Origin: Alphaproteobacteria bacterium
Lineage (GTDB): Bacteria > Pseudomonadota > Alphaproteobacteria > MPNO01
Assembly: GCA_964291675.2 (NCBI GenBank)
Contig: OZ219866.1
Span: forward strand, 3,232,001-3,296,000
Direction of reading: 5' to 3'
Length of the DNA stretch: 64,000 bases
The number at the start of each line of letters is the position of its first letter. Position 1 is the stretch's first letter. The notes beneath the pieces were generated by a model. That model did not search any database, had not been told where the DNA came from, and worked only from the letters and a program-made list of their open reading frames with translations. A program made the translations under genes and the position numbers. Below, piece by piece: positions 1 to 27,042 of the stretch.

Positions 1-1
1 C

Positions 2-136
2 CCGTTCCGCAGGAACGACGAGCTGCTGAACCTGCTGCCGAAGGGCGTCATCGCGTTCCCCGGCTCCGGGATCACCGGAAACCTCGTCGACAAGGCGAGG
101 CAGCTGGGCATACCCGTGTATTCCGTCGCGGCGTGA
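2..136 (+). CDS. 3' end of DUF2493 / YspA-like SLOG-family protein (partial, runs off window)
   Basis: Frame 2 reads PFRRNDELLNLLPKGVIAFPGSGITGNLVDKARQLGIPVYSVAA*. The RN...IAFPG.G.T...V.KA...GIPV pattern is typical of DUF2493 genes on alphaproteobacterial mobile elements. Confidence 0.75.
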   Translation, partial: PFRRNDELLNLLPKGVIAFPGSGITGNLVDKARQLGIPVYSVAA

Positions 137-160
137 TGCGGCACTTCCCCCTCTCCCGGG

Positions 161-818
161 AGCCGGTCCTCGCAAACGTGAGGACCGGCTCCCCCCTTTT
201 GCTCCGTTGCCAGAGCCGCGCATCGACGCTGAGCGTCCGGCGCGGCGCTTCGCGCCGGCGCCGGGCGCTCGCCGGTCGTTCCTCTCCAGCGGCTGTCCCT
301 CCCTTCTCAGCGCGGCGGCTCGCCGTTCTGCGAACGGCATATCGCCGCCGCGCTTCGCGCGCCGCCATCGGCCCCGTATCAGCTCTTCCTTCTCCCCGAA
401 CCCGCATTGGACGCCGCCACCGTTCCGTTTGTGGCGGCCCTGGTGGGGCATTCCCCGAACCCTGTCGCTTGTAGCACAACTTCCATTGTCCCCGGTGACG
501 GCCTGCCGTCGTCCGCGCCGTCGGTCGAAAGGGTTGGGCGCCCGCCCGGTCCTTCGGACCGGTCGCCGGGCTCTATTCCGCCGGGCGCGGCTTCGCCACG
601 CCCGGCTCCACGAAGCCCGCTTCGCGGTCTTCGCCGTTCGGTGACGATCCCTGGCGCTTGCCGGTGCGGACGACAGGGCCCCGTCCTTCCGCCGCCGTGG
701 CTCGGTCGCTCCGCTCCCATCGCCGGCGGCTCTCCCCGATACCTTGTCCAGTCGCCTCGCCGCCCTTCGGCGGCTCGCCTTCCCCCATGGCCTCGCAACA
801 GGCTCGGCGCTTCGCGCC
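161..818. repeat. Cluster of GC-rich hairpins with TTC/GAA loops next to the oriT region
   Basis: Stem-loops centred on GCTTCGC (247, 352, 590, 619, 809) and CCTTCGG (551, 764), plus gccggtcctc-N8-gaggaccggc at ~162-189. Confidence 0.6.
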
Positions 819-1249
819 ATCGCTCTCTCCCACACCGTCATCGAAGATGAACAGCAGCGCTCCCTGCGCCATCGTATTCAGGCCTGCCGCGATCCCGATC
901 GTCCTCGTCGAACACGCAGTGTTCCGCGCTCCCGCGCTCAACTCGTCCAGCCGCTCTCCCCGCCCAGGGTCGTCTTGAGACCAAGCCCGCCCGGCCCGAT
1001 GCGACGTTCTGTCAACGCTCACTCCGATCACGTGACCGTCACGCGCTCCGCCTCTTGCTCGAGCTTGCGCTCTCGCAAGCGGCCTCGCTCTCATTCGAGG
1101 TCCCGCATCAACGGGATCGGTTTCTCCGGATCGTTCCCCATTGCCTCTGCCTCGACCCCCGCTCCAATGGACGGCGTCGCCACTGGAATCGGAGCCCTCA
1201 CGACGAATTTCTCCACCTGAATCGCATTGACGACCAATTTTTTTCGCCG

Positions 1250-1590
1250 TGGTAACGCGTAGCCAAGCCCATACATGTGGTGACTACGTTCCCCGGAGGC
1301 CCCACATATGGTGTTCGCAATGAGGACCGTGCTATGCAGGCAGCATGCTTCGTCGGAAACAAGTCACTGAAAAAGGCAGCTTCTCACACCTGTGCATGCT
1401 GGCGCATGCGGGAGCGAGCCGGAGCCACGGAATCGGCCCACGGGGACGGCACACCACAACACCTATACAAGGATTTTCCGAGCTTTGTCGGGTCGCTTCA
1501 GCCGGTTGCTGAGAGGCTGTGCGTGCCGGATCGCATGAACACCGTCCCGGCAGGAATGGGCACGCACACCAGTCGCCAGCGGGCGGGTGC
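1250..1590. promoter_or_regulatory. Candidate oriT / relaxase promoter region
   Basis: Lower-GC non-coding stretch directly upstream of the MobF relaxase. Imperfect inverted repeats (cgtagcca...tgactacg; catgtgg...ccacatatgg) and a GT-rich minus-strand tract GTATAGGTGTTGTGGTGTG (~1450-1468) loosely resemble MOB-F nic sites. Confidence 0.45.
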
Positions 1591-1593
1591 GCC

Positions 1594-4500
1594 ATGGTAG
1601 CCACCATCGGCCAGATGGCGTCGGCGGAGTACTACCTGGAGAGCCAGCGCTCGTTCCGCCATCCCAACGAGTACTACACGGCGGGCGAGGAGCCGGACGG
1701 CACCTGGTTCAACCCCAGGGGCCTGCTCGGGCTGGAGGACGGGCAGAAGGTGGATTCCGGCCACTTCCACCGCCTCTACTCGGGCTTCTCTCCCGACGGC
1801 TCGGACAAGCTGGTACAGCGGGCCGGCAACCCGGCGCGCTCTCCCGGCGTCGACCTGACGTTCTCGGTGGACAAGAGCGTGTCGTCGCTCTGGGCCCTCG
1901 CCGAGCCGCAGATGCGCCAAGAAATCGAGGCGATGGCGGTGGCCGCCGCCAGGGCGGCGATCGAGGACACCGTGTTCAGGTATTGCGCCTACACCCGTGT
2001 CGGCAGCAACGGCGTGACCCGTCCTTCGGAGGCCGACCTCATGGGAGCCACCTTCGTGCACGGCACGAGCCGGGAGAACGACCCGCAGCTTCACGTCCAC
2101 TGCACGATCTTCAACCTCGCGAGGACCCGGGAGGACGGCAGGTGGCGGGCGCATCACCAGTACCCGGTCTACAGCTGGAAGAAGGCGGCGGGTGCGCTGT
2201 TCCGCGCGTACATGGCCTGGGACCTGCAACAGAACCTGGGCGTGCGCATGGATCAGTACGGTCCCAACGCCGAGTTCACCCGTATCGAGGGGATGCCGGA
2301 GGATTTGCAGTCCTTCTGGTCGAAGCGGCGTAAGGCCATCGTCGCCAAGGCCGGGGAGCTGGGCATTCCCTCGCTCGGCAACGCTTCGCGCATGGCGGGC
2401 GTGAACAAGCTGACCAGGGCGGGCAAGTCACATGACAACGACCCCGAGGTCCGTCACCGCCGCTGGCGCGAGGAAGCGCAAGACTATGTCGAGCGCGAGG
2501 CGCTGATCCGGTCCGTGACAGGCCATAAGGTCGAGATCGGGCGAGAACGGATCCGGGAGCTGACCGACAGGCTCGACGATCTTCCTGCCCACCTTGCGCG
2601 TGAGGAAGCCGTGTTCCGGCGCCCGGACATGGTGGAGGCGGCGGCGAACGCGGCAGCGGGACTGCTGGGCCGGGACGCGGTGGGGACGGCCATCGAGCGG
2701 CTGCGGCGCAACCCGGAGATCGAGCGGCTGGAGCCCAAGAAGCCGACGGCGGAGTCCCTGGCCGGCATGGCTCACACCGAGGTCTACTCCACCCGCCATA
2801 ACCTCGGCCTGGAGCAGGCGGTCAAGGACATGGCCGAGGCCATGGCGGCCGACACCGGCCACGGCCTGCCGGAACAGGCGGTCAAGGAGAAGGTGGAGAC
2901 CCTGCTTGAACGGGGCTATCCGCTGAGCCAGGAGCAGTCGCTGGCGATCCGCCACGCCACCGCGAGGGGCGGCCGGGTCGCGGTGATCGAGGGCGCGGCG
3001 GGCTCGGGCAAGACCACCACCTTGAGGCCCATCACCGACCTTCACAGGGAGCACGGCTACGAGATCGTGCCGACGGCGGTGGCCTGGCGGACGGCGGTGG
3101 CGCTGGGCGACGACTGCGACGCGCGCGCCTACTGCGTCGACAAGCTCCTCAAGCTCGCGGCCAAGGGACAGATCGAGATTGGCGCCAAGACCCTGATCGT
3201 GGTGGACGAGGCGGGGATGCTGTCGACCCGCCAGGCCCATCACATCCTTCAGCTCTCCGAGCGCCACGGCGCCAAGGTGGTGTTCGCCGGCGACACGCGC
3301 CAGCAGCAGCCGGTGGAGGCGGGGCCGGGGTTGAGATTGATCCGCGACGTGGCGGGCAGCGTGCGCGTCGACCGCATCCGGCGCCAGAAGGCGGACCTGG
3401 AGGACGTGCTCGTCCATGTTCACGAGGAGACGCCGGAGCAGGCGCGCTTCCGGGCGGGGCTCACGAACCCGCAGGAGCGTGACGCCATCATGGCCGGCTA
3501 CGAGGCGACGGACCGCAAGCCGGTGTTCACCCCGTGGCAGGTGGCGGTGTCGGAGGCGCTTCGAGACGGCGAGGCCGGGAAAGCCATCGAGGCGTGGCAT
3601 TTGCGGGGCCGCCTTCATCTCTGTCACGACGAGGAGAAGACCCTGGCGAAGCTGGTGGACGACTGGGCGCGGCACGTCAAGGCCGAGCCGGACTCGTCCG
3701 CCGTCGTTCTCGCGCGCACGCGGGCGGAGACGCGCGCGCTGTCGTGGCTGATGCGGGAGCGGGTGCTCGGCAAGACGCCCGATGCGGAGCGCGCCGTCAT
3801 CGAGGTGAGCCGCGAGGTGGACGGGCGCAAGACGGAGCCTCTGGAGATCGCCGTCGGCGACCGGTTGCGCATCGGGGCGACGCAGTGGGAGAAGCTGCTC
3901 TTCAACGGCACCGTGGTCACCGTCGAGCGCATAGAGATGCACCGGGAGGTGCAGCGGGCAGCAGACCCTGCGGTGTCGGACACGGCGGTGTCCCGCAAGG
4001 CCCGGAACCGGCGAGCCGGCGGGGCCGCCGGGCGCGGGGCCGGGACGGAGGCGAGAGACCGCAAGCCCGGAGAGGACGAACCCTCCCTTCTGATCACCGC
4101 CCGCACGGATGATGGGCGCAAGGTGACGTTCCGCCACGACGAGATCCGCGATTTTCACGGCAACGTCCGCCTCGACTACGGCTATGCCATGACCATCGCC
4201 TCCGCCCAGGGGCTCACCGTGGACAGGGCCTTCCTGCTGGTGGACGACCGGCCGGCGCGGGAGACGATCTACCCGGCCGCGACCCGGCACCGGGAGGGGA
4301 TCGACGTCTACGTCAACCGCTCACCCATCGCCTTCGACATCGCCGAGCGGCGGCCGGAGGACAATGCCGACATGCCGGTGACGGACTCGGAAGTCCGCGG
4401 GTATCTGGCCGAGCGCTGGTCGCGCTCCGAGCCCAAGGAGGCGGCGCTCGACTACGTCGCGGGCGGCGCATGGCGCGATCCCCGGGAAGCGGCGCGCAAC

Positions 4501-9600: not shown

Positions 9601-9783
9601 ACCAATTATTCTCAATCTGACCTGAGCTCCGCGGGACACACGAATGGCGAACCGTTCGTCGCCCTCGAGACGGCCGTCCGAATGTATGGCGACATTCGGA
9701 GCCGTCTCTGGTTGATTCACCGTCACCGAGACAAGCCCCTTGGCGGTCTTCTTGCAAGATTGCTGAGGGGCACCCCCCATCAC
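6622..9783 (-). CDS. Autotransporter-like adhesin (Calx-beta + lectin/endostatin-like domain + C-terminal beta-barrel), 5'-truncated
   Basis: Calx-beta motif LSVADA.AEEG...VTVDYAT.DGSA.AGEDY...GTLTF.AGE.KTV.V.VLDD..DEG.E; barrel linker PKAWLARFGRTV; terminal W. No signal peptide. The first ~30 codons derive from a transposon end. Confidence 0.8.
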   Translation of the reverse strand: MMGGAPQQSCKKTAKGLVSVTVNQPETAPNVAIHSDGRLEGDERFAIRVSRGAQVRLRIIGDYQHAYVTIEDATAPPPALQVRLSDSAIDVGDEATATFLAPGGGLTWGGFPVTFAMHPEVSPDPRLTGKAAADEDHFEIRVDGAKVDRGADGTWRAEFGRRNFDSAGPVTVSVFNREDRRAEGAKLLVLVPDAGGARLLRDGGTQFREWVLTRAAAPVAVVPRIDGIEVPADWALLPAGVGPGGGFRLLVVTSQSRTAEASGISSYDGHARSLAAAGHAAIREHGSKFRALVCTAAVDARDQTGTTGAGVPVYWLGGDKVADGYGDLYDGSWASNAPRDERGEAVPGRSVRVFTGCAGDGTGQDGLELGSAGRIAIGRAKVAGVELNDPGTTTERQLHRRIYALSPVFVRAGAAASAGTLSVADARAEEGTDATLDFVVTLDRSSTGTVTVDYATSDGSAAAGEDYTATSGTLTFAAGESAKTVAVAVLDDAHDEGSETLTLTLSNAAGATIADGSATGTITNSDPVPKAWLARFGRTVTGQVLDAVEARLSAPRAAGVEASLAGQALPSWRDGEAAALNEDADAARERREDAEARAGLAAVTAWLSQTGPDGRGAAGFGGHGDEDGREFETRALSGRDFVLGTSFALTGGSSEGGGFASLWGWGSIAGFDGREGSLTVDGEVTTGLIGADWASERWTAGLAVGHSTGAGGYRRGGDCAPNCGGAIDATLTGLYPYAGIDLTDRLSLWAAAGHGAGEVTVTPEAPEGGNGPGLSADLTMTMGAAGMRSEVLRPEGGDGLLLALKGDARFTRTSSEAVRSSSGNLAAADADAWLVRAGLEGSRPFPLGGDGATLTPSFELGIRRDGGDAETGLGADMGGGLAFADSRHGLVFEARARALVAHQAEGFREWGAGASFGWDPRPESGRGLSLTLTQSWGGTPSGGMDALLGRETLVGLAPAEGEDGSSGFHASRRLEGEIGYGWPAFGGAFTGTPNLGFGLSDGGARDWRIGWRLAPARASAGGFEVSLDATRSEPANDADPPVHGVMLRGAMRW

Positions 9784-9842
9784 CCATCAAATAACTTGAG
9801 CGGATTCCCCCGGAATCCCATCAAACAAACTGCGCCCTCTCA
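9689..9842 (-). mobile_element. Orphan end of a transposon related to the 20891-25299 element
   Basis: Aligns with 25148-25299 (shared gcgacatt...gtcaccgagacaagccc...ttcttgcaagat...agcggat...ctgcgcc..ctca). Its terminus TGAGAGGGCGCAGTTTGTTTGATGG matches the end at 20891 at 21/25. Confidence 0.8.
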
Positions 9843-16741: not shown

Positions 16742-19534
16742 TTAGGCGACTCTGTTGCAAACAGACGGTTCCCGGCTGATTGCGGCCCGCCATTTCGCCA
16801 CTTGTAAGCCGTTTAGGCGCGCAACACGGGCGGCGGCCGAATCGATTTCGATTCGCGCCGGGTCGTCAGCCATGTTTGGCAACGGCTCCAGCCTCGCTTT
16901 TCTGGTTCTCTCGAAGGCGTCAATGAGCGGCTGCAAATCAACCGATTTCGGATTGGGGCATGGAAGGGCGCGCAAGTTTTCAAGAGGAAATGCCGGATAG
17001 GTCAGTTCTTTCGTCCGGCGAGCCAAAAGACCTAATATGCCCGGCGTTGAGTTGAGCCATGCAGCCCATGCCTTTTCGGTTTGCGCCGTGCCTCCATCTA
17101 TAGGGGTGATGGGGCACCATGCGCTTCTAAGTGCCATCTCTCCGGTCCAGACCGCAGTCGTCCGAACAAGATTGATGCGCATTTTGTTGCCGACGAGCAG
17201 CCGTCCGGCCTTCGGCCACAATCGGCGCTCGGCATACCGTTCCTTGCCCTCCCTGGGCCGCATACGGCGATCCGGCGTTGTCTCGATAGACTGCTGCCGA
17301 TCGGTCTCATGCCGCCATAGCAGGGCATATTCGCCGGTCATGCTTTCATCGCTGGGGAACGCATCACGGATTCGCCGACCTTCCGGCCCTACATGCGCCA
17401 TGTCGCGCAACGGGCGAAGCCGGTCCCCCATGAGCGCCTCTATTTCGTCAATCGCCTCGATCAGTTCGGCGTCGTAGAACAGGGCGGCAATCCAGTCGCC
17501 GCGCTTCATCCGGGCGGCGGGCCACACGGTCTCCCGTCCCCACTCCGCCAGATCGCCGTTGTCCCGCAAGCAGCTTTCCAGTGCCAGCGCCTCGGCCTTG
17601 TTCGTCGGGTTGCGGTGAAGCTGAATGAAGCGCGTCGGCTTCGCTTCGTCCCTGGCGGCCGTCGCAACGATCATGCTTTCGTGAATCCTGGTATTCCCCG
17701 AGAAATAGATCCGCGTTGGATCGTGTGCTGTTATGACGGTCTCGATTTGGAAGCGCGTCGCCAGCAGTTCGCGCTCCGCCTGCCCGGAAGGCGCAGTCAT
17801 GGCGGTTGTGGGAAGAACCGTCGCCAGCGTCCGCGCTCCGGTTTTCAGTATCTTGTCGGCCAAGGGAGTGAAGAATGTTCGCGCACTGGTCTGGTCTATG
17901 CCTTTGGCGGCGTCCTTGTCCTGCGCCTCAAGCCGCTCAGCTATATCCTGTTCGCGCTTCTGCACCTGTCTCCGCGCCTCCGGCGTGAGTTGCCGGTTGC
18001 GAATGTCGTTCCGCGTAAAGGGTGGGTTCATTATCACCAAGTCAAACGGATCCGAAATGTCCTTCCCAAATTGCTCACCTTCGCTACGGCCAGTTTCAAT
18101 TTCCTCCTCTGCCTTCGGACGGCCCAAATCCAGCGCCAGTTCGCCGGGGCTGTCCTGCAACAGCAGTTCAAGGGACCCTGCCCATGCGCGCTCGGCGTCA
18201 CCATCTGGGAGCACTCCGTGCTTCGCCGTATAGAGCGGCATTCGGTGATAATCGACGCGCGGCGAACTGAGTGTGAGATTGCAGGCCGCGAGCTGTACGG
18301 CGTGGCGGTTGATGTCGAGGCCATGCAACACCCGCTGGACCATCTCGAGATGCACCATCTCAATCGATGTGCGGTCGTTGGTGGTCGCGCTATGAAGGTC
18401 GCGGACGGCGTGTTGTGCGGCCAGCAACAGCGTTCCGGTCCCGCAAGCCGGGTCGATGATCCGTAGCCGTGCGATTGCCTCGGGATCGCGCCAGTCGCAA
18501 TCCACATGTGAAAGGGCAAGGCGTGCGAGCAACATGGCGGCTGGCGGGGTCGTATAGAACGATCCGTCATACCGCGCACTTTCGAGCAATCGGTGGTAGA
18601 TCGGCCCCGCAACGTCGTATTCCAAGGCCCCGAGGGCGTGTGCGCAAGAGTCCGCAGCGCAGCGCAGCGTTTCGAGAACCCACTCGGTTTCCACTTCGTC
18701 AGGAAGCGCGAGCAAACAGGCGAGAGCCGGTTCAAATATCGGCTTGTAATCGACGGCAAGGATTTGCTCCCATCGTCTCGTCAACAGGCTCTTCGCCGTC
18801 TCGTTCGGCGTTGCCTGTGGAAGCGGAACATCTGACCAGATTGCTTCGAGTCGCCGGTCAAGAAGACAACCGTTAGCGAGCATCACGGACGCTATACGCA
18901 GAACCCTGTCATCGCCTGCTTTCGGCGGCTGCATGTTGAGAGCCAAGGCGAGCAACTCGGTAGCCGCCTCGCGGTGGCTCACCCAGATATTCGCGGACTC
19001 CACGATGATCCCTGTCAGCAGGGTTTCTATGTCGCCGCGGCGATCGGAAACGTTACGGATTTCCGTCGCAAGGGTTGCCGCCCCTCCTCGGCGCCATGCT
19101 TCGCCGCCCGCGCCGGCGAACACCCACTCCAGCCCCTGCGTTTGGCGCAAACAGGATGCTATTTCGGGAGGCGTGAGATCGCCCCTGATCTCATCTGGGT
19201 AGCAAAGAGCGAGAGCAAGCCGCTTCGGTGCGTTCTGTGGCTGATCCTTCGTCCACCGGCGCGCTTGCTCGGACGCTTCTCGTTTCGCCTTGTCGCTAGT
19301 CCCGAATTTCGCTTCGCCGAATATCGTGTGAGGGCAATCGAGAGTCGGACGAATTGTCAGGTCCGGCGTCTTGCTCCGCCCGTGGACACGCTGTTCAGGG
19401 ACCGTCCGGAGATTGTGGTCTTCGGTCAATACCCCGGCAAGGATCGTGTTAATTGCCTCTTCCCGGCTTCCCTTGGCCGCCCCAGACTGCCCCTGTCTCA
19501 GCCTATCCCGGTTTTCGCCGTCCGTCTCGACCAT
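16742..19534 (-). CDS. Type IIG-like fused restriction endonuclease / N6-adenine methyltransferase
   Basis: N-terminal PDLTI...FGEAK (PD-ExK), GSFYTTPPAA, motif I IIDPACGTGTLL, motif IV VIMNPPF, putative C-terminal target-recognition region. Confidence 0.85.
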   Translation of the reverse strand: MVETDGENRDRLRQGQSGAAKGSREEAINTILAGVLTEDHNLRTVPEQRVHGRSKTPDLTIRPTLDCPHTIFGEAKFGTSDKAKREASEQARRWTKDQPQNAPKRLALALCYPDEIRGDLTPPEIASCLRQTQGLEWVFAGAGGEAWRRGGAATLATEIRNVSDRRGDIETLLTGIIVESANIWVSHREAATELLALALNMQPPKAGDDRVLRIASVMLANGCLLDRRLEAIWSDVPLPQATPNETAKSLLTRRWEQILAVDYKPIFEPALACLLALPDEVETEWVLETLRCAADSCAHALGALEYDVAGPIYHRLLESARYDGSFYTTPPAAMLLARLALSHVDCDWRDPEAIARLRIIDPACGTGTLLLAAQHAVRDLHSATTNDRTSIEMVHLEMVQRVLHGLDINRHAVQLAACNLTLSSPRVDYHRMPLYTAKHGVLPDGDAERAWAGSLELLLQDSPGELALDLGRPKAEEEIETGRSEGEQFGKDISDPFDLVIMNPPFTRNDIRNRQLTPEARRQVQKREQDIAERLEAQDKDAAKGIDQTSARTFFTPLADKILKTGARTLATVLPTTAMTAPSGQAERELLATRFQIETVITAHDPTRIYFSGNTRIHESMIVATAARDEAKPTRFIQLHRNPTNKAEALALESCLRDNGDLAEWGRETVWPAARMKRGDWIAALFYDAELIEAIDEIEALMGDRLRPLRDMAHVGPEGRRIRDAFPSDESMTGEYALLWRHETDRQQSIETTPDRRMRPREGKERYAERRLWPKAGRLLVGNKMRINLVRTTAVWTGEMALRSAWCPITPIDGGTAQTEKAWAAWLNSTPGILGLLARRTKELTYPAFPLENLRALPCPNPKSVDLQPLIDAFERTRKARLEPLPNMADDPARIEIDSAAARVARLNGLQVAKWRAAISREPSVCNRVA

Positions 19535-20549: not shown

Positions 20550-21146
20550 CTGCCCCTTCTGTCAGCGAGAGCATCAAGCGTCAACTCTGAGCTTGGCGGT
20601 GCCGATGAGCGTGTACATCGCCGCCGCGCGCACGGCCGCCTCGGTCCGAGCCGGTGAACAGCCACGACTTCCCGGCCAAAGCGATCGTGCATTCATTCTG
20701 CCCATATCGGGCAGGATTGCGTCATCCACTACCGCTGGCACGCACTGTTCGGCCGTTGAGTACGCTCTGAAGCTATCGAACAGCGTGCCGACGCTCCATC
20801 GCCTCCGTCGAGGTAGAGCCGGGGCTGGTCATCAAGATAATCGCCGGATCGATCCCGCGAATGGCGGAACAGCGCCGCCGGCGGGTCCGGTGAGCGCGCG
20901 CACGTTGTTTGATGGTGCGGATTTCGCGTTATTCGATGGGGATCGTCTGCCGTTTGCAGGAAGGCCGGGCGGGGAGTGTCGCGAGGCCGTCGGCGCTTCA
21001 AGCCGCTTCGCGGCTCCTTCGCTCCGCTACGGCCCTTCGGGTGACCCGCCGCCGTCCCCGCGCCAGAGGGCTGCCATGGCCGTAAGCAGAGCTTTCGGCC
21101 ATTGGCCGATCGCTTCAGGCAGTTTCGTGGGGCATTGTGCGCTGGT

Positions 21147-21202
21147 GTTCCCGTTCCCGTTCCCTGCAACGCTTAAGGGTTCGCCGGAACGGGAACGGGA
21201 AG
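21147..21202. repeat. Symmetric iteron-like array (GTTCCC)x3 - CTTAAG - (GGGAAC-like)x3
   Basis: GTTCCC at 21147, 21153, 21159; CGGAAC/GGGAAC/GGGAAG at 21185-21202. The symmetry axis coincides with palindrome CTTAAG (21172-21177), 14 bp after the AAA_25 stop. Confidence 0.8.
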
Positions 21203-21216
21203 AGGGGCTGCTTCGC

Positions 21217-22206
21217 CTACGGGTTGTGGCTGTCCGTCGGGTTGTCGGCTTGGTTCGCCGCGGTTCCGAGGAAGCGGTAGCGACCTCCCGTCCCGCGCTC
21301 GACCCGTCCCTCGCGCACAAGCCCGTGCAGTGCCGCGGAGACAGTCGCGTTGCGTACCCCGGCGCGTTTTCGGATCTCGGACTGCACGAGTGGGGATTCG
21401 GCTGTCGCGAGCACCTGGGCGATCCGCTGTTCGGCGCTGTCCGGCTGCGGCGGAGCCTGGTGAGGTCCTGTCCGCCGGAGCTGCAGCGCTGGTCCTTCGC
21501 CGTCATCGGCAAGCTCGATCTCGATATTGTTGAGGCCGGGTGCGGCGCGATGCTCGGCGGTCATGACGATCTGCCCGTCGCGCCGGCGCAGGTAGAGATT
21601 GCTGTCGCCCCAGGCATGCAGCTCGCTGCTGCCGCGCAGCGCCTGGCCGGGGCGGCTGGCGCCACTCTTGCGAGCGTGGTGGACGAGCAGCACAGCGGTC
21701 CCGAAGCGGCGCTGCAGGTCGCGCAGGAAGCCGAGGATGGGAGCGACTTCCGCAACCGCGTTCTCGTCGACGCCATGCAGGCGGACCAGGGGATCGAGGA
21801 CGAGGAGGCGCGGTCCGATCCGTTCGACGGTCTCCAGCAGCCGCTGCCGGTCGAGGCGATGATCGAGGCGGAGCGTGGGCACGTCGATGACGGCGATGTC
21901 GAGGGCCTCGAAGTCGGCGCCGGCGGCCCGGGCGATGCCCTTGAGGCGGTCGCGCACGATGTGACCGGCGTCCTCGGCGGCGAAGAGCAACACGGTGCCG
22001 CTTGCCGCGGGGCGGAAGTGGCGCAGGCAGGGCACTCCTGCAGCCACCGCGACGGCGAGGTCCAGCGCGAGGAAGGACTTGCCGCACTTGGGCTCGCCGC
22101 CGACGATGCCGACCCCCTGTTCGCTCCACAGGGCATCGACCAGCCACTGCCGCTCCCGCGGCCGCTCCTCGAGTTCGGCCGGTGGCCGTGTCGGGAAGCC
22201 GGTCAT
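21217..22206 (-). CDS. RecA/SF4-type AAA_25 ATPase (RepA-helicase-like) with C-terminal winged HTH
   Basis: WLVD.LW, Walker A GGEPKCGKS, Walker B LLVLDP, LLVHHARK, LRGSSEL; C-term SEIRKRAGVRNATVSAALHGLVREGRV (wHTH). ATGA overlap with the upstream gene. Confidence 0.85.
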   Translation of the reverse strand: MTGFPTRPPAELEERPRERQWLVDALWSEQGVGIVGGEPKCGKSFLALDLAVAVAAGVPCLRHFRPAASGTVLLFAAEDAGHIVRDRLKGIARAAGADFEALDIAVIDVPTLRLDHRLDRQRLLETVERIGPRLLVLDPLVRLHGVDENAVAEVAPILGFLRDLQRRFGTAVLLVHHARKSGASRPGQALRGSSELHAWGDSNLYLRRRDGQIVMTAEHRAAPGLNNIEIELADDGEGPALQLRRTGPHQAPPQPDSAEQRIAQVLATAESPLVQSEIRKRAGVRNATVSAALHGLVREGRVERGTGGRYRFLGTAANQADNPTDSHNP

Positions 22207-23036
22207 CGCCGGGCCCGCCTGGCTGGCGGTGCCTCGCCGAGGGTCTCGATGAAGAGCTTCTCGTCGAGCACCTCGCGATCCTTCTCGGCACCGGCTGCGA
22301 GCACGGCATCAGCCATGACGGTGAGTGCCCTGGGGTTTCCTGCGGCATGGGTGACGAGGGTGTCCCTGAGCCCGGCGGTCATCAGCGCCGGATTGCCGGC
22401 CTCTTCGAGCAGATGGTCGAGCAGGCCGGCCAGGTCGGCGTCCTCGGTCCGGGTCATCAGCAGACGCTGTCGGATACGCGAGGCGATGGGCTGCAGGTCG
22501 GGCTGGCGGAGCCGGTCGAGCAGGCGGTTGTCACCGGCGAAGACGACGGAGAGGATGGCGCGCGAGTCGAAGTCGGTCGACGCGAGCAGGCGGATCTCGG
22601 AGAACACCGAGGGCAGCAGTTCCTGGGCCTCGTCGATGAGCAACACCGGGCGCATGCGGGTGTCATCGAGATGCGCGAGCCAGCGCTGGCGCAGGTTTTT
22701 GAAGCTGGCCCAGCGATTGTTGTACAGCAGGTCGACGCCAAACAGCTCGCCGATCTCGCGGTAGAAGTCCGACAGTCTCGAGGACGGGTGGGTGATGGCG
22801 GCGACCCTGAGCCCGTCGCATCGCCCGAGCCGGTGGGCGAGCAGGCGCAGGGCAACGCTCTTTCCGGTTCCGGGCTCTCCGGCGATCAGTGCGAAGCCGC
22901 CGTGGCGCACGAGATGGCGTTCGATCCTGAGGCAGAAGCTGTCGACGGCGCCAGTCGCCATCAGGCTGTCGACCGGGAGGTCAGGGGCGAACGGGTTCCA
23001 CTTGAGCCCGTACAGGGTGAGGTGTTCGCGGTTCAT
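22203..23036 (-). CDS. ExeA/TniB/IstB-like AAA+ transposition ATPase
   Basis: YGLKWNPF, Walker A GEPGTGKS, Walker B LLIDEAQ, AAGNPR; coupled to the transposase stop (TGATG). Confidence 0.88.
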   Translation of the reverse strand: MNREHLTLYGLKWNPFAPDLPVDSLMATGAVDSFCLRIERHLVRHGGFALIAGEPGTGKSVALRLLAHRLGRCDGLRVAAITHPSSRLSDFYREIGELFGVDLLYNNRWASFKNLRQRWLAHLDDTRMRPVLLIDEAQELLPSVFSEIRLLASTDFDSRAILSVVFAGDNRLLDRLRQPDLQPIASRIRQRLLMTRTEDADLAGLLDHLLEEAGNPALMTAGLRDTLVTHAAGNPRALTVMADAVLAAGAEKDREVLDEKLFIETLGEAPPARRARR

Positions 23037-24490
23037 CAGCGTTCTCCATCATCGCGGGTGTCATCGAAGGCAAGCCATGCCGGCGGCAGGCCGGTTGCAG
23101 CCTGCGCGTCGAGCATGCTCTTGAGCAGCGGCGGCAGTCCGCCTGTCCCCTCGCCGCCCTTGCCATCGTCGTCGCCGGGGCCGATGGGACGGCGCACACC
23201 ATCGGCGTTGCCGCGCTTGTCGAGGGGATAGAGCGTGCACAGCCGTTCGCCGCCCCGGCCGTCGACCAGATCGACGCTGCTGAGGTCCCAGCGCGCATAG
23301 CGGACCCAGGCCTCGCGCAGGTGGCGCCACGGCGGCGGTATCTGGTAGCGGATGTTCTCGACCGAGACGGTGCCGTCCGAGCGCCGGAGCATGCGCTTCC
23401 TCGTGATGCGGAAGGCCGCCTTGAGCTCGGCCGCGCCGGGGCAGGGCCGCGATGCGTCGACGCTCCCGGCGAGGCGCCGATGCGGCGACATGCCGAGTTC
23501 GCGGTGCTCGCGGCGGTGATAGTCCTGCTCCAGCCAGGCGACGGTGGCGTCGTTGAGCATCTTCAGGGTGAGCGCGTCGACGCCTTCGAGCTGGGCCATC
23601 AGGCGTGATTCGACCGTGCCCCAGAAAGTCTCGATCTTTCCATTTTGATGCGGGCTGTACGCGAGCGTCGTGACCCCCGCGATGCCGAGCCGGAGCAACC
23701 CTTCCTCGACCTCGCCGGCGGTCATCGCCGAGCCGTTGTCGGTCAGCAGGGACCGCGGCAGGCCCCGCTTCATCAACGCCTGGCACAGCCCATGGACGAA
23801 GACCTCTGCGGTCTCGGCGAGATACCACTGAAGGTGGCAGCCGAGCCGGGAGTGGTCGTCGAGAAAGCCCAGAAGGATCGGCGTCTTCCACTCGCCCGAG
23901 GCCGTCAGCACACGACACTTGGCGGTATGCATATCGCTGTGCCACAGGGCGTGGCTGCGCGTGACCTCGTAGCTCAGTACCTCGCGGGCCTGGACAGGCG
24001 GCCGCGCCTCGCTCTCGTGCCACTTGCGCCGGCGCTTGCGCACCAGCCCGCGAGCCCGCATCGCCCGGGTGAGCGTCGCATAGGACGGCATCGGGCCGAG
24101 CGCCGGATCGGCCGCGACCAGCGCCGCCAGGTTCTCATGGTGCAGCTGTGCCGACCACGACGGATGCGCCCGGTACTGATCGCGCAACACCTCGATCAGT
24201 GCCGCCGATATCGCCCGTTCGCGGCCGATGTCGGCCCGTGGCTTTCGGCGAAGCGCCTTGACCGGGTCCTGCTCCTGCGCCCGCGCCTGGTAGTACCAGC
24301 GCTCGATCGTGGAGGCCGAGAAGCGCACCGGCCCCTTGCCGGACGGATGTTCCCACTCGCGTCCGGCCAGCCGCTCCAGCTCGGCCCGCAGCTTCCCCTT
24401 CGGCGGCGGCGAGGCCAGAAGCGGCCCGACCACCGCGAAGCGCAGCCGCGCCCACCGGTCGCGACGCTCGCTCCCGTCGTTGCTGTCCAT
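23036..24490 (-). CDS. DDE (rve) transposase, Mu/TnsB/IS481-like
   Basis: N-terminal HTHs (FSASTIERWY; PSYATLTR), catalytic WHSD, FLDDHSR, LTDNGS, QNGKIETFW, Mu-type C-terminal beta region (DGTVSVENIRY). Confidence 0.9.
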   Translation of the reverse strand: MDSNDGSERRDRWARLRFAVVGPLLASPPPKGKLRAELERLAGREWEHPSGKGPVRFSASTIERWYYQARAQEQDPVKALRRKPRADIGRERAISAALIEVLRDQYRAHPSWSAQLHHENLAALVAADPALGPMPSYATLTRAMRARGLVRKRRRKWHESEARPPVQAREVLSYEVTRSHALWHSDMHTAKCRVLTASGEWKTPILLGFLDDHSRLGCHLQWYLAETAEVFVHGLCQALMKRGLPRSLLTDNGSAMTAGEVEEGLLRLGIAGVTTLAYSPHQNGKIETFWGTVESRLMAQLEGVDALTLKMLNDATVAWLEQDYHRREHRELGMSPHRRLAGSVDASRPCPGAAELKAAFRITRKRMLRRSDGTVSVENIRYQIPPPWRHLREAWVRYARWDLSSVDLVDGRGGERLCTLYPLDKRGNADGVRRPIGPGDDDGKGGEGTGGLPPLLKSMLDAQAATGLPPAWLAFDDTRDDGER

Positions 24491-24539
24491 CCCGGCATCC
24501 CTCCCTCGCCCTGTTGGGGAGATGCCGGTGTAAGAGCCC

Positions 24540-25154
24540 CTATCCGTTCATGACAGAAACGCTTTCTGCGGGCGAAGCCGGCCCGGCGCCGAGCGCGCAA
24601 GAACCGGTCCACGGCATCAGCCAGACCAGGCTCCGCAGCAGCCGCGCCCGCAGGCCCCGGCCCCGCATCAGGCGCAGCAGCCGGCGCACAGGCGCTTCCC
24701 CGGCCGGTGTCGCCAGCTCGCCCCGCTTCGCCGCCCACTCCGGGGTCGCCGGGAAGGCGTCCAGCCACCAGCGACGCCAGCGCTTCAGCGTCGAGACCGG
24801 AACCCCACAGCGCCGCGCGATCGTCTGCAACCGCACCCCGCCGGTCAGCGCCAGTGCGCTCACCAGCAGGAACAGCGCACCGACGTAGAACCTCCGACCG
24901 AAGAAACGCACCGAGGCAGGACGCACCCGGCGCCTGCACACCGAACAGCACAGGCTGAAGCGCCGCACATCGTCCCGAAGATCCGCCGCCAGACCGTACG
25001 GCTTGCGAGGGTAGGCCGCGCTGTGAAGCGTCCCGCCGCAGTGAGGACAGCCCACCGCACGGCAGGCCTCCGCCTCGGCTGCGTCGACCTGCTTCAGAAA
25101 GTCCCAAACCCGGGCGTTGCAGAGGATGGAGTGACGGAACAGCTTGTGCGACAT
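24540..25154 (-). CDS. Zn-ribbon + HTH protein (DUF6431-like), first gene of the transposon
   Basis: CPHCGG...FSLCCSVCRRR..P.SVRF, then IARRCGVPVSTLKRWRRWW (HTH). Confidence 0.75.
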   Translation of the reverse strand: MSHKLFRHSILCNARVWDFLKQVDAAEAEACRAVGCPHCGGTLHSAAYPRKPYGLAADLRDDVRRFSLCCSVCRRRVRPASVRFFGRRFYVGALFLLVSALALTGGVRLQTIARRCGVPVSTLKRWRRWWLDAFPATPEWAAKRGELATPAGEAPVRRLLRLMRGRGLRARLLRSLVWLMPWTGSCALGAGPASPAESVSVMNG

Positions 25155-25299
25155 TGGGGCGTCTCAGTTGATGTAGCTGTCACCGAGACAAGCCCTCCGG
25201 CGGCCTTCTTGCAAGATCGCCGGGGGGCACCTTCCCCAAAACCTCGATTAATCCAAGCGGATCAGCCCCCAATCCCCGCTGAAAGCCTGCGCCTGCTCA

Positions 25300-26141
25300 T
25301 CCGGACCGCCGAACGGCGCATCGTCGCGCACATAGACCCACGCCCGGCCGGTGGCGCACTTGCCCCTGGCCAGCACCGGCACCGGGGTATCGTCGCCGTG
25401 CAGCCGGTCCGCCGCCAGCACATGCGCCGCGATCAGGTCGTGCAAGGGTCGGAGCGCCACGGTGCAGGCGCCGACCTGGTCGGCCAGGGTCGACAGGCTG
25501 AGATCGACGCCTTCGCGCGCGTAACGGTCGCGCTGGCGGTTCAAAGGCTGATGCTGCCCATACTTCTCGAACAGGATCATCGCCAGCAGGTTGGGACCCG
25601 CCCAGCCCCGGGGCGTCGCATGAAACGGCGCCGGCGGCTGGCTGATCTTCTCGCAACGCCGGCAGGTGAACTTCTCGCGCACCGTCTGGATCACCTTCCA
25701 CCGGCGCGGGATCGCCTCCAGCGTCTCGGTGATGTCCTCGCCGATCTTCGACAGCTCCGCCGAGCCGCAGCACGCGCAGGATGTCGGCGCGGGCACCACC
25801 ACCCGCTCGCGCGGCAGCTGCGCAGGCAACGGCTTGCGGGCCGGCCTGCGCCGGGTGAACCCTTCAACCCGCGTGGTCTCCGCCGCCGCCTTCTCGGCCG
25901 CCAGCTCGTCCTCCGTCGCGCTCGCCTCGAGTTCGTCGAGCTGGAGTTCGAGTTGGTCGAGAAGACGCTGCTTGCGCTCCGAGCGAGAGCCGAAGAACTC
26001 GCGCCGGAGCTTCTCGATGGTCAGCTTCAGAAAGGCGATCTCGGCCTCGGCGTCGGACATCTTCGCCTCGGCGTTCGCGGCCCGCGCCTCCGCCGCCGCG
26101 AGGGCCGTCTTCAGGGCTGCGATGTCGGTCCCGTCGGGCAT
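25300..26141 (-). pseudogene. tnpC: IS66 transposase TnpC, 5' part (interrupted)
   Basis: FGSRSE, LPRERVV...CACCGS, K.TCRRCE, KYGQHQPLNRQ, LHGDDTPV.VL. Confidence 0.9.
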
Positions 26142-26209
26142 CGGCGGGATCGAATCACAGCGCCCGATTCGCCGCTACAGCAATCCTGGCGGCCGACCCG
26201 CTTTGCCGC

Positions 26210-26557
26210 TCAGCCCGCGCGCGACGGTCGCCAGGCCTGGACCGGGTTCCGCCAATCGATCCCCTCAAGCAGGGAGCCGAGCTGCGCCGCGCCGATCGAC
26301 ACCGCGCCGCCCGACGTCACCGGCCACTGGAACCGGCCGCGTTCCAGGCGCTTGGCATAGAGCGAGGTCCCAACCCCGTCACTCCAGAGAATCTTGACGA
26401 GGTCGCCTTTGCGTCCGCGGAAAATATAGAGATCGCCCGCGTGAGGGTCGCGACCGAGATCCTCCTGGACCTGGAGCGCCAGCGTGTTCATGCCGCGCCG
26501 CATGTCCGTGACCCCGGTCGCCAGCCAGACACGGACGCCGCCAGGAACCGGGATCAT
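26210..26557 (-). CDS. tnpB: IS66 accessory protein TnpB
   Basis: VWLATGVTDMRRGM..L...D.H.G.LYIFRGR.GD.VKILW.DG.G..LYAKRLE.GRF.WP. Confidence 0.92.
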   Translation of the reverse strand: MIPVPGGVRVWLATGVTDMRRGMNTLALQVQEDLGRDPHAGDLYIFRGRKGDLVKILWSDGVGTSLYAKRLERGRFQWPVTSGGAVSIGAAQLGSLLEGIDWRNPVQAWRPSRAG

Positions 26558-26937
26558 CGCCGCGCCAGAACCGAAAGAACCCGCCCCAGAGCCGCGCCGT
26601 CCACCTCCCGGTCGACAATCACACGCGACCCGTCCGCCAGCGCGATCTCGATCCGCCCCGTCGTCGGCTCGGCGCCCGCACCGGCATCCTTCGGAGGCGA
26701 CAGCATGCGATCCGGCTCGACAACCACCGGCACGAAACCGCCTTGCTCGCGAAACTTCCGGCGCCAGTTGAAAACCAGGTTGGCGTTCAAATCATTGCGC
26801 CGAGCGACCAGCGCGACCGAAACCCCCGGCTGATAGCTCTCCGCAACGATCCGGCGCTTCGCCGCCTCGCTCCAGCGGCGCCGCGAAGCAGCCGGCCGTG
26901 CCGGCAACCGCACCCGCTTCTCCTCTGCATCCGACAT
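26554..26937 (-). CDS. tnpA: IS66 accessory protein TnpA
   Basis: RRRWSEAAKRRIVAES..PG.SV..VARR.DLNANLVFNWRR, FVPV.V, IEI.L.DG.RV.V. Confidence 0.88.
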   Translation of the reverse strand: MSDAEEKRVRLPARPAASRRRWSEAAKRRIVAESYQPGVSVALVARRNDLNANLVFNWRRKFREQGGFVPVVVEPDRMLSPPKDAGAGAEPTTGRIEIALADGSRVIVDREVDGAALGRVLSVLARR

Positions 26938-27042
26938 CTGCGATCGTGTCCACTTGGTCCTCGGTGGACATTTCCCAAGTGTCCACTCCCGATCGCACAG
27001 CCTCACACGGTCACACTAATCCGGGAAGGCGGCCCTCGCCGG

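Follow-up and report, generated by a model that had tools for sequence, protein, structure and literature searches.

Why should a small transposon carry a gene for a presumed replicative helicase? The question is raised by a locus in a 64,000-nucleotide stretch of an Alphaproteobacteria genome (GCA_964291675.2, contig OZ219866.1, positions 3,232,001 to 3,296,000; the whole stretch is called the window below), in which positions 20891-25299 make up a discrete mobile unit of 4409 bp with four genes, all on the minus strand. Their products are ORF1, the DDE transposase TnpA, an AAA_22 ATPase and an AAA_25 ATPase, the last being the presumed helicase. The original prediction, made from the letters of the window alone, saw here an intact-looking Mu/Tn7-like transposon with an SF4-type helicase gene of its own, a candidate for an undescribed family of replicative transposons. 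Our results show that the unit is an intact and recently active DDE plus AAA+ transposon and an active member of the Tn6049 kind, a kind of transposon that is named but barely studied. New here is the AAA_25 gene in fourth position, Tn6049 itself being in print. The reading that we prefer, and to which we give a probability of about 0.55, is that of a Tn6049-kind element with an exchangeable RepA/DnaB-like helicase module that would aid replication of the transposition intermediate.

A search of the element's own genome confirmed the proposed boundaries, as four places match bases 1-4409 at 100% identity and the match stops there. All four identical copies start with TGAGCGCGCGCA and finish with TGCGCCTGCTCA, giving the inverted ends TGAG...CTCA. 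The 5-bp target-site duplication described for the window copy, TCCGG, is present on both sides (20886-20890 and 25300-25304), and the other three copies are flanked by ACCGG, CGGGT and ACAG, the last of only 4 bp. The window copy interrupts an IS66 tnpC gene, and when the two flanks are translated apart the upstream part ends in ...RDDAPFGGP plus 2 nt and the downstream part goes on with PDPPAALF..., in a single frame. Across the junction point, another IS66 TnpC of this genome, 86% identical, has the sequence ...RDDRPFGGPDPPAALFRYARDRSG... (FGGPDPPAALF). The claim that this frame rejoins perfectly on removal of the element thus stands at the junction, and it needs a correction downstream: the window TnpC diverges from the 86%-identical copy about 16 codons past the junction and meets a stop after 53 codons, so the host gene has a second lesion and the perfect rejoining is therefore true only locally. 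A fifth copy, 77% identical, lies at C1:13-2889 of the same genome (L005) and is truncated where the contig begins, with a transposase frame that breaks near residue 199 and with two TGA codons inside the match. In the public run X1 the contig word depth was ~11 on the element vs. 3 on the flank, a figure that is no copy number and that fits four chromosomal copies. No circles or other joints were found in the public runs X1, X2, X3 and X21; the one run of raw reads among them (Hi-C) placed 0 reads on the stretch, and the others are contigs, which are blind to rare forms.

Three of the four copies in this genome are hosted by IS66-family elements, lying within tnpC, ahead of tnpA, and between tnpA and tnpB (window 25248-27006 and 20729-20890; C2:3463700-3466100; C1:900450-902950). 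IS66 genes are within reach in only four loci of other genomes, and the association looks like nesting in IS-rich DNA, not targeting. A separate observation concerns two IS66-type TnpC genes of the same genome (C2:~3466090 and C1:~902780), 44% identical to each other and both interrupted after ...AERA(L/M)R(G/P)IA. The same foreign sequence continues both, and it seems that another element has inserted twice at one conserved TnpC position.

The transposition genes agree with the view of an intact transposon with a DDE transposase and an AAA+ ATPase. TnpA (484 aa, 23036-24490) has an rve domain that matches at 28 bits, under the Pfam cut-off of 32.6, and its residues D186, D251 and E287 are invariant in 68 rows of relatives. 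The best NCBIfam match is IS481 (8.8e-33; 114 bits vs. a cut-off of 224), and PHROG 310, a transposable-phage transposase, is matched at 2.3e-38. The AAA_22 ATPase (277 aa, 22203-23036), a candidate helper of the MuB/TniB/ExeA type, matches Pfam AAA_22 at 2.4e-21 and PHROG 296, 'DNA transposition protein', at 2.6e-20; Pfam TniB gave 16.5 bits, under the cut-off of 22.4, and ShTnsC an E of 0.13. Sequence searches of the PDB with TnpA and the AAA_22 ATPase returned only weak integrase, Cdc6 and TnsC matches. Judged from these families, the two proteins are a Mu-type pair. Their genes overlap by 1 nt, and the AAA_22 and AAA_25 genes by 4 nt. Pfam and NCBIfam found no resolvase or TnsA domain in the four open reading frames (ORFs), the element leaves no space for a fifth gene, and PADLOC gave no match for ORF1 or TnpA.

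ORF1 (204 aa, 24540-25154) had been described as a Zn-ribbon and helix-turn-helix (HTH) protein that could resemble the target selector TniQ. It is rich in Cys, and an HTH domain, HTH_23, was indeed found; the Zn ribbon is presumed from five Cys residues (36, 39, 69, 70 and 73) that are invariant in its relatives. Among the 352 homologues, of ~204 aa, blastp matched an annotated DUF6431 protein in the same gene position (E 2e-4), and in the Atlas clusters nearest to ORF1 (scores 0.94-0.97) 32-74% of the members have DUF6431, together with HTH domains. The Pfam DUF6431 model (PF20020) does not match ORF1 even at E <= 10 and gives E 0.2 for the corresponding upstream protein of a second transposon lineage (see below). 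ORF1 thus looks like a divergent DUF6431 protein. The proposed TniQ likeness found no support, as an ORF1 profile matched nothing in the PDB below E 0.03, and no TniQ. Foldseek gave no match at E <= 0.001 with a poor model (predicted local distance difference test, pLDDT, 66.6) that cannot exclude a TniQ/TnsD fold.

The kinship of the element became clear from plasmids. With TnpA as query, tblastn found genes ~50% identical to it in Cupriavidus metallidurans CH34 and in relatives, in regions annotated with an ORF1 homologue, TnpA, an AAA ATPase and a 71-aa ORF, which are Tn6049. Identities to Tn6049 are ~40% for ORF1 (41% over 132 aa, E 4e-29), 50% for TnpA and 51% for the AAA_22 ATPase; Tn6049 is also carried by pHS87a of Pseudomonas aeruginosa, and a relative on pBPHYT01 of Paraburkholderia phytofirmans has an ORF1 39% identical over 184 aa (E 4e-34). 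In the accessible text of the sources, Tn6049 is a 3.5-kb element with 12 copies in strain CH34 and an ATPase gene named 'gspA' (PMC2864759), with 12-bp imperfect ends TGTGC... (TG...CA) and a 4-bp direct repeat (PMC4739549); that text gives no mechanism for it. Our element shares with it the order ORF1, TnpA, ATPase and the TnpA/ATPase overlap. It also shares the multi-copy state (PMC2864759) and short imperfect TG...CA ends with a 4-bp duplication (PMC4739549); among 59 copies of seven element types, 18 have duplications of 4 bp and 29 of 5 bp. It differs from Tn6049 in length (4409 bp vs. 3.5 kb) and in having a 329-aa AAA_25 protein instead of the 71-aa ORF as fourth gene product, and Tn6049 lacks AAA_25, the Toprim gene and the hairpin tail described below. 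The element is placed in the Tn6049 kind by three of its four genes, by their order and by the type of its ends, and the family as a whole can no longer be called undescribed. Nor is the helicase a universal core gene. More distant plasmid relatives, in C. necator, A. caldus and M. intracellulare, have a DUF6431 protein, a DDE gene, an AAA ATPase and a 65-aa ORF, and together with Tn6049 they hold a small ORF of 65-71 aa where our element has AAA_25. Three of the small ORFs, those from P. phytofirmans, C. necator and A. caldus, are mutually homologous (E 7e-14 to 2e-4), and the 71-aa ORF of Tn6049 matches none of them. The small ORFs of the Tn6049-type relatives have no similarity to AAA_25 (best E 0.12), and the idea that its winged helix is a grown-up small ORF was rejected on this ground.

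The fourth gene (21217-22206) encodes a protein of 329 aa that matches Pfam AAA_25 at 1.1e-37 and is presumed to be a RepA/DnaB-like helicase with a C-terminal winged helix. When a profile of 69 AAA_25 sequences was searched against the PDB, the helicase RepA of plasmid RSF1010 (1g8y) came first at 8e-18, followed by DnaB, winged helices and RadA. The RecA-fold core, residues 33-210, aligns with RepA at ~20% identity, and GePKxxKS, AED, LDP, HHARK and RGSS of AAA_25 fall on GAGKS, AED, LDT, HHASK and RGSS of RepA. Residues K43, E78, D138, R142, E148 and R191 are invariant in the 69 sequences and H176/H177 at least 90% conserved; the RepA residues aligned to these catalytic positions we take to be its Walker residues, Glu, His sensor and Arg finger. 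Z-alpha-type winged helices match the profile at residues ~257-312, and a winged helix at this end is further supported by weak Pfam matches and by a helix-helix-helix-strand-strand pattern in the model. The suggested structural comparison with RepA was equally favourable: an AlphaFold (AF2) model of high confidence (pLDDT 91.6) gave DnaB at 1e-11, RepA at 2e-11 with a target-normalised template modelling (TM) score of 0.76, and RadA in Foldseek, with Rad51 and KaiC lower in the list. In the PHROGs collection the protein matches phage primase/helicase families. PADLOC gave no match, nor did tblastn of AAA_25 against 72,556 plasmid records or megablast of the whole element against the PLSDB plasmids. 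Taken together, profile and model argue that the fourth gene product is an RSF1010-RepA-like RecA-fold ATPase of the superfamily 4 (SF4) type with a winged helix, in agreement with what had been predicted, and unwinding and ring formation are presumed from its likeness to RepA and DnaB.

All four genes are conserved and under selection. The ratio of non-synonymous to synonymous substitution (dN/dS; 21 pairs each) is 0.31 for AAA_25, 0.30 for TnpA, 0.40 for AAA_22 and 0.34 for ORF1. The AAA_25 family is abundant, with 41,290 representatives at E <= 1e-3 and 487 clusters (50% identity) at E <= 1e-30. Its members are currently annotated as 'AAA family ATPase', 'hypothetical' or 'IS481 family transposase', and 'AAA family ATPase' is the sole source name seen for the AAA_25 protein itself. 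Our literature searches turned up no description of a DDE/AAA+ transposon that carries an AAA_25 helicase, the term 'AAA_25' mostly matching accession numbers.

The context of AAA_25 was read from the best 80 of 358 relatives found by an AAA_25 alignment scan with one genome per species, and from 80 metagenome loci. All counted loci, of both kinds, were selected through AAA_25, so that the counts tell where this kind of AAA_25 lives and not how large a part of the transposons have it. An AAA_22 gene lies directly upstream of AAA_25 in 80 of 80 genome loci, and the transposase is also visible in 75, the other five being cut by a contig or locus start. The same neighbour was found in 76 of 80 metagenome loci, the remaining four having less than 100 bp of contig on that side; here the AAA_25 proteins are 52-57% identical to that of the window, and TnpA (~50%) and ORF1 are present wherever the contig reached. 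In three other genomes AAA_25 relatives directly follow AAA_22 and TnpA in the order of the window. Within the order, five of five copies of the TnpA of the window's lineage (lineage 1) outside its own genome adjoin AAA_25, and even the decayed copies in genome G062 still hold AAA_25 fragments.

That the ends consistently enclose AAA_25, an expectation attached to the original prediction, was borne out by seven multi-copy element types with 59 copies, up to 20 of them in one genome, in which TGAG...CTCA ends surround the gene. These types are 4384-4429 bp long, with one of 5185 bp. Besides the duplications of 5 bp (29 copies) and 4 bp (18), one of 6 bp and 11 of 3 bp or less were seen. Some genomes hold at least 20 copies of the AAA_25 family. 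Samples of 400 genomes, in which only 3-5 candidates were scored per genome, added three further genomes of the class with AAA_25 at E <= 1e-15 and, with TnpA as query, one genome of the phylum, holding Tn6049 itself. Three pairs of copies, each on different contigs, show swapped half-duplications (x..y and y..x; L049/L050, L086/L088 and L054/L064). We rejected these as evidence, since recombination, replicative events and assembly joins would all fit. One copy of type A (L067) is 6458 bp long vs. 4384 bp, with ~2.07 kb extra between its ends.

If AAA_25 is shared so widely, has it always travelled with the same transposase? A second lineage shows that it has not. In lineage 2, TnpA is 28% and the AAA_22 ATPase 27% identical to those of the window, the transposase has a Mu-transpos_C domain, the upstream gene is DUF6431-like, and the ends are TGTTG...CAACA with duplications of 5, 5 and 4 bp. 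In the TnpA tree the two lineages are parted by a branch of 2.19 changes per site. The AAA_25 of lineage 2 is, in contrast to its transposase, 72% identical to that of the window, with the same 4-nt overlap with AAA_22, and it is nested in the diversity of lineage 1 (clade support 96). AAA_25 has thus crossed between the two transposon lineages. Gene trees also disagree inside lineage 1, as the TnpA of type A is nearest to that of the window and its AAA_25 is basal, and identities can be mosaic, as in L077 with AAA_22 at 96% but TnpA at 72-76%. AAA_25 behaves as part of an exchangeable end module.

The module has further forms. In 14 of the 80 genome loci and in one place of a same-genus genome a 289-aa DUF3991/Toprim_2 gene directly follows AAA_25, making five-gene variants of 5185 bp (L086:9103-9972 and 13 further genome loci; L040:3239-4108). 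No match to a small ORF was found in the AAA_25 loci of genomes or metagenomes, and the two were not seen together in any locus. In a TnpA tree of 61 rows, Tn6049 and the P. phytofirmans relative fall inside a clade whose other sampled members all carry AAA_25, and the outgroup carries a small ORF. We read this as repeated replacement of the fourth position and, the sampling being biased, read no more than that from the tree.

Between AAA_25 and the element end lies a non-coding tail that belongs to the same module; its features, like those of both ends, are given for the minus strand. Directly after the AAA_25 stop is hairpin 1 (21148-21201), with 27-nt arms that are 81% complementary and compensatory changes from CC/GG to AC/GT in relatives, a putative terminator or protein site. 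It is the sole part of the tail that is also present in Toprim-bearing and some metagenome elements. The conserved tail proper (20966-21121) has hairpin 2 and a long stem with three GNA-loop mini-hairpins (CCCGAAGGG, GCGGAGC and GCGAAGC). Its mean pairwise identity of 0.88-0.91 is at the level of the best coding stretches, and compensatory pairs are seen. The tail is common to lineage 2 at 83-85%, travelling with AAA_25; it is missing from Toprim-bearing elements, so that tail and Toprim gene are mutually exclusive in the loci seen, and it is shortened in L073 and L041. Rfam, run on the element, gave only a chance miRNA match (E 0.77). The triple mini-hairpin recurs at another place in the own genome (C2:78714-78759; L007:1380-1560), there with a compensatory change in its stem; this copy and more hairpins of the GCGAAGC type are intergenic and outside any transposon copy.

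Both element ends were aligned across the seven element types. Each has two related 12-mer repeats, presumed to be transposase sites, and the ends are imperfect inverted repeats of the form TGAGC..GCGCA. On the AAA_25 side (20891-20939), with the TGAG terminus, the two 12-mers are direct repeats (GTTGTTTGATGG at 20904-20915 and GTTATTCGATGG at 20928-20939), and these repeats are conserved in six related element types. The ORF1-side end (25155-25299), with the CTCA terminus and its two presumed sites, also holds a conserved stretch with a GTCTC...GAGAC inverted repeat ahead of the ORF1 start, presumably a promoter or operator. Apart from the element, a solo end of a relative is found at 9689-9842 of the window; it is 73% identical to the ORF1-side end, finishes with CTCTCA and holds the conserved promoter-like stretch, and no transposon genes adjoin it.

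How could a helicase serve such an element? By homology, TnpA would bind the subterminal sites, nick the 3' ends and join them to target strands cut 4-5 bp apart, with the AAA_22 protein selecting or activating the target and ORF1 acting as a DNA-binding regulator or accessory factor. The AAA_25 helicase might then load onto the hairpin tail or at the fork-like intermediate left by strand transfer, with the winged helix possibly guiding it, and would drive DNA synthesis that copies the element or fills gaps. The element would thereby depend less on the host restart primosome, and in the five-gene variants the primase-like Toprim protein would join AAA_25. A role of AAA_25 in replicating the transposition intermediate is what we infer from these likenesses. 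Several observations weigh against this reading. Tn6049 has reached its 12 copies in CH34 (PMC2864759) without AAA_25, and distant relatives hold the small ORF. Transposition itself cannot need the helicase, because Tn6049 and these relatives spread without it; most likely it helps the element and is dispensable for the family's chemistry. A resolvase for cointegrates is absent, and simple insertion would equally well leave the matching duplications that flank most copies. The loci with AAA_25 next to AAA_22 were selected by AAA_25, so their counts do not tell how many TnpA relatives lack it. RecA-fold ATPases include non-helicases such as KaiC and Rad51, which appear lower in the same fold list. 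Finally, the tail was in 0 of 58 divergent metagenome elements tested and is missing from some AAA_25 elements (L041, L073), for which reason it can be no general loading site. A bolder form of the same idea, tentative and clearly less probable, is that this widespread Mu-type DDE clade carries its own partial replisome, made up of the RepA-like helicase with a Toprim primase-like protein or single-stranded mini-hairpins, so that the intermediate would be replicated without PriA restart by the host. Such an element would be a 'self-primed' replicative transposon, its fourth gene a plug-in slot in which alternative solutions to one step (a small ORF, a helicase, or a helicase and a primase) would take each other's place.

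The same data can be read in other ways. AAA_25 could be an ATP-driven DNA-binding switch, that is a target selector, a regulator of immunity or copy number, or a remodeller of the transposase complex, standing in for the small ORF of Tn6049. Its place is exactly that of the 65-71-aa ORF, with which it was not seen in any locus, the winged helix is suited to DNA binding, and RecA-fold non-helicases (KaiC, Rad51 paralogues) are in the fold list. The best sequence and fold matches are nevertheless ring helicases (RepA at 8e-18, DnaB, RadA), every RepA-type catalytic position is kept, and the primase-like Toprim gene that accompanies it in 14 of 80 loci is easier to reconcile with replication than with regulation, which leaves a switch unlikely. 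Just as unlikely in our view is a selfish passenger that recombines into the ends of resident transposons and brings no benefit for transposition. AAA_25 is under purifying selection as strong as that on the transposase, both lineages retain its 4-nt overlap with AAA_22, none of the five lineage-1 copies of the order is an AAA_25-free derivative, and decayed G062 copies retain fragments of the gene; all this speaks against a passenger, for which stand a module that has moved between lineages with less than 30% identical transposases, the mosaic gene trees of lineage 1, and the success of relatives without the module.

A third possibility takes the similarity to a plasmid helicase at face value: the element might excise as a circle and replicate like a small plasmid, with AAA_25 as Rep helicase and the hairpin tail as origin. 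GNA-loop mini-hairpins, stable ones of which the tail contains, are linked to single-strand origins, and some variants have a primase-like gene. Yet no initiator gene is present, many AAA_25 elements are without the tail, and the 72,556 plasmid records held no AAA_25, so that we consider such a replicon improbable. Least probable of all is that AAA_25 is cargo of benefit to the host, for instance a gene for anti-phage defence or repair. Tn7- and Mu-kind transposons often carry cargo at one end, but AAA_25 is invariant and not variable across loci, is translationally coupled to the transposition genes, has no PADLOC match, and is in an element of only 4.4 kb with no other cargo.

A helicase module that aids replication of the intermediate, our preferred reading, would set the element apart from the systems it otherwise resembles. 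Mu (MuA/MuB), Tn552 and Tn5053/Tn402 (TniA/TniB) likewise pair an rve DDE transposase with an AAA+ partner, and the best PHROGs of the window's pair are from transposable phages. These reference elements have TG...CA ends, several sites per end and ~5-bp duplications, as does the window's family. In contrast, Mu-transpos_C was found only in lineage 2 and not in the TnpA of the window, the TniB score is below cut-off, and, compared with these elements and Tn7, no TniQ, resolvase or TnsA was detected. To our knowledge, none of Mu, Tn552 and Tn5053/Tn402 carries a helicase. The hexameric helicase RepA shares with AAA_25 the RecA core and its nucleotide-binding and catalytic stretches; it differs in its low identity, in the winged helix that the transposon protein adds at the C-terminus, and in serving a plasmid replicon and not a transposon. 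In RSF1010, RepA works beside the primase RepB and the initiator RepC. IS481 elements are single-gene and lack an AAA+ helper, whereas the window element has four genes; the IS481 model is the best NCBIfam match of TnpA, well under its cut-off, and NCBI names the Tn6049 TnpA 'IS481 family transposase'. Casposons and Polintons are self-synthesising and bring their own replication proteins, namely a protein-primed DNA polymerase with Cas1 or a retroviral-type integrase, whereas the window element combines a helicase, with or without a primase-like gene and with no polymerase, with a Mu-type DDE/AAA+ chassis. How a strand-transfer intermediate is handed over to the replisome is known in detail only for phage Mu, where it goes via host factors. 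A ring helicase of its own, sometimes with a primase-like protein, on a chassis of 4.4-5.2 kb would, if this reading is true, be a compact natural system for dissecting the hand-over. Recognising so abundant a family would improve the annotation of many environmental genomes and would help to explain assembly breaks and rearrangements in them.

The neighbourhood of the element has one more feature of note. Upstream in the window, on the minus strand at 16742-19534, lies an ORF of 930 aa with DPACGTG and NPPF stretches, which we take to be motifs of N6-adenine DNA methyltransferases.

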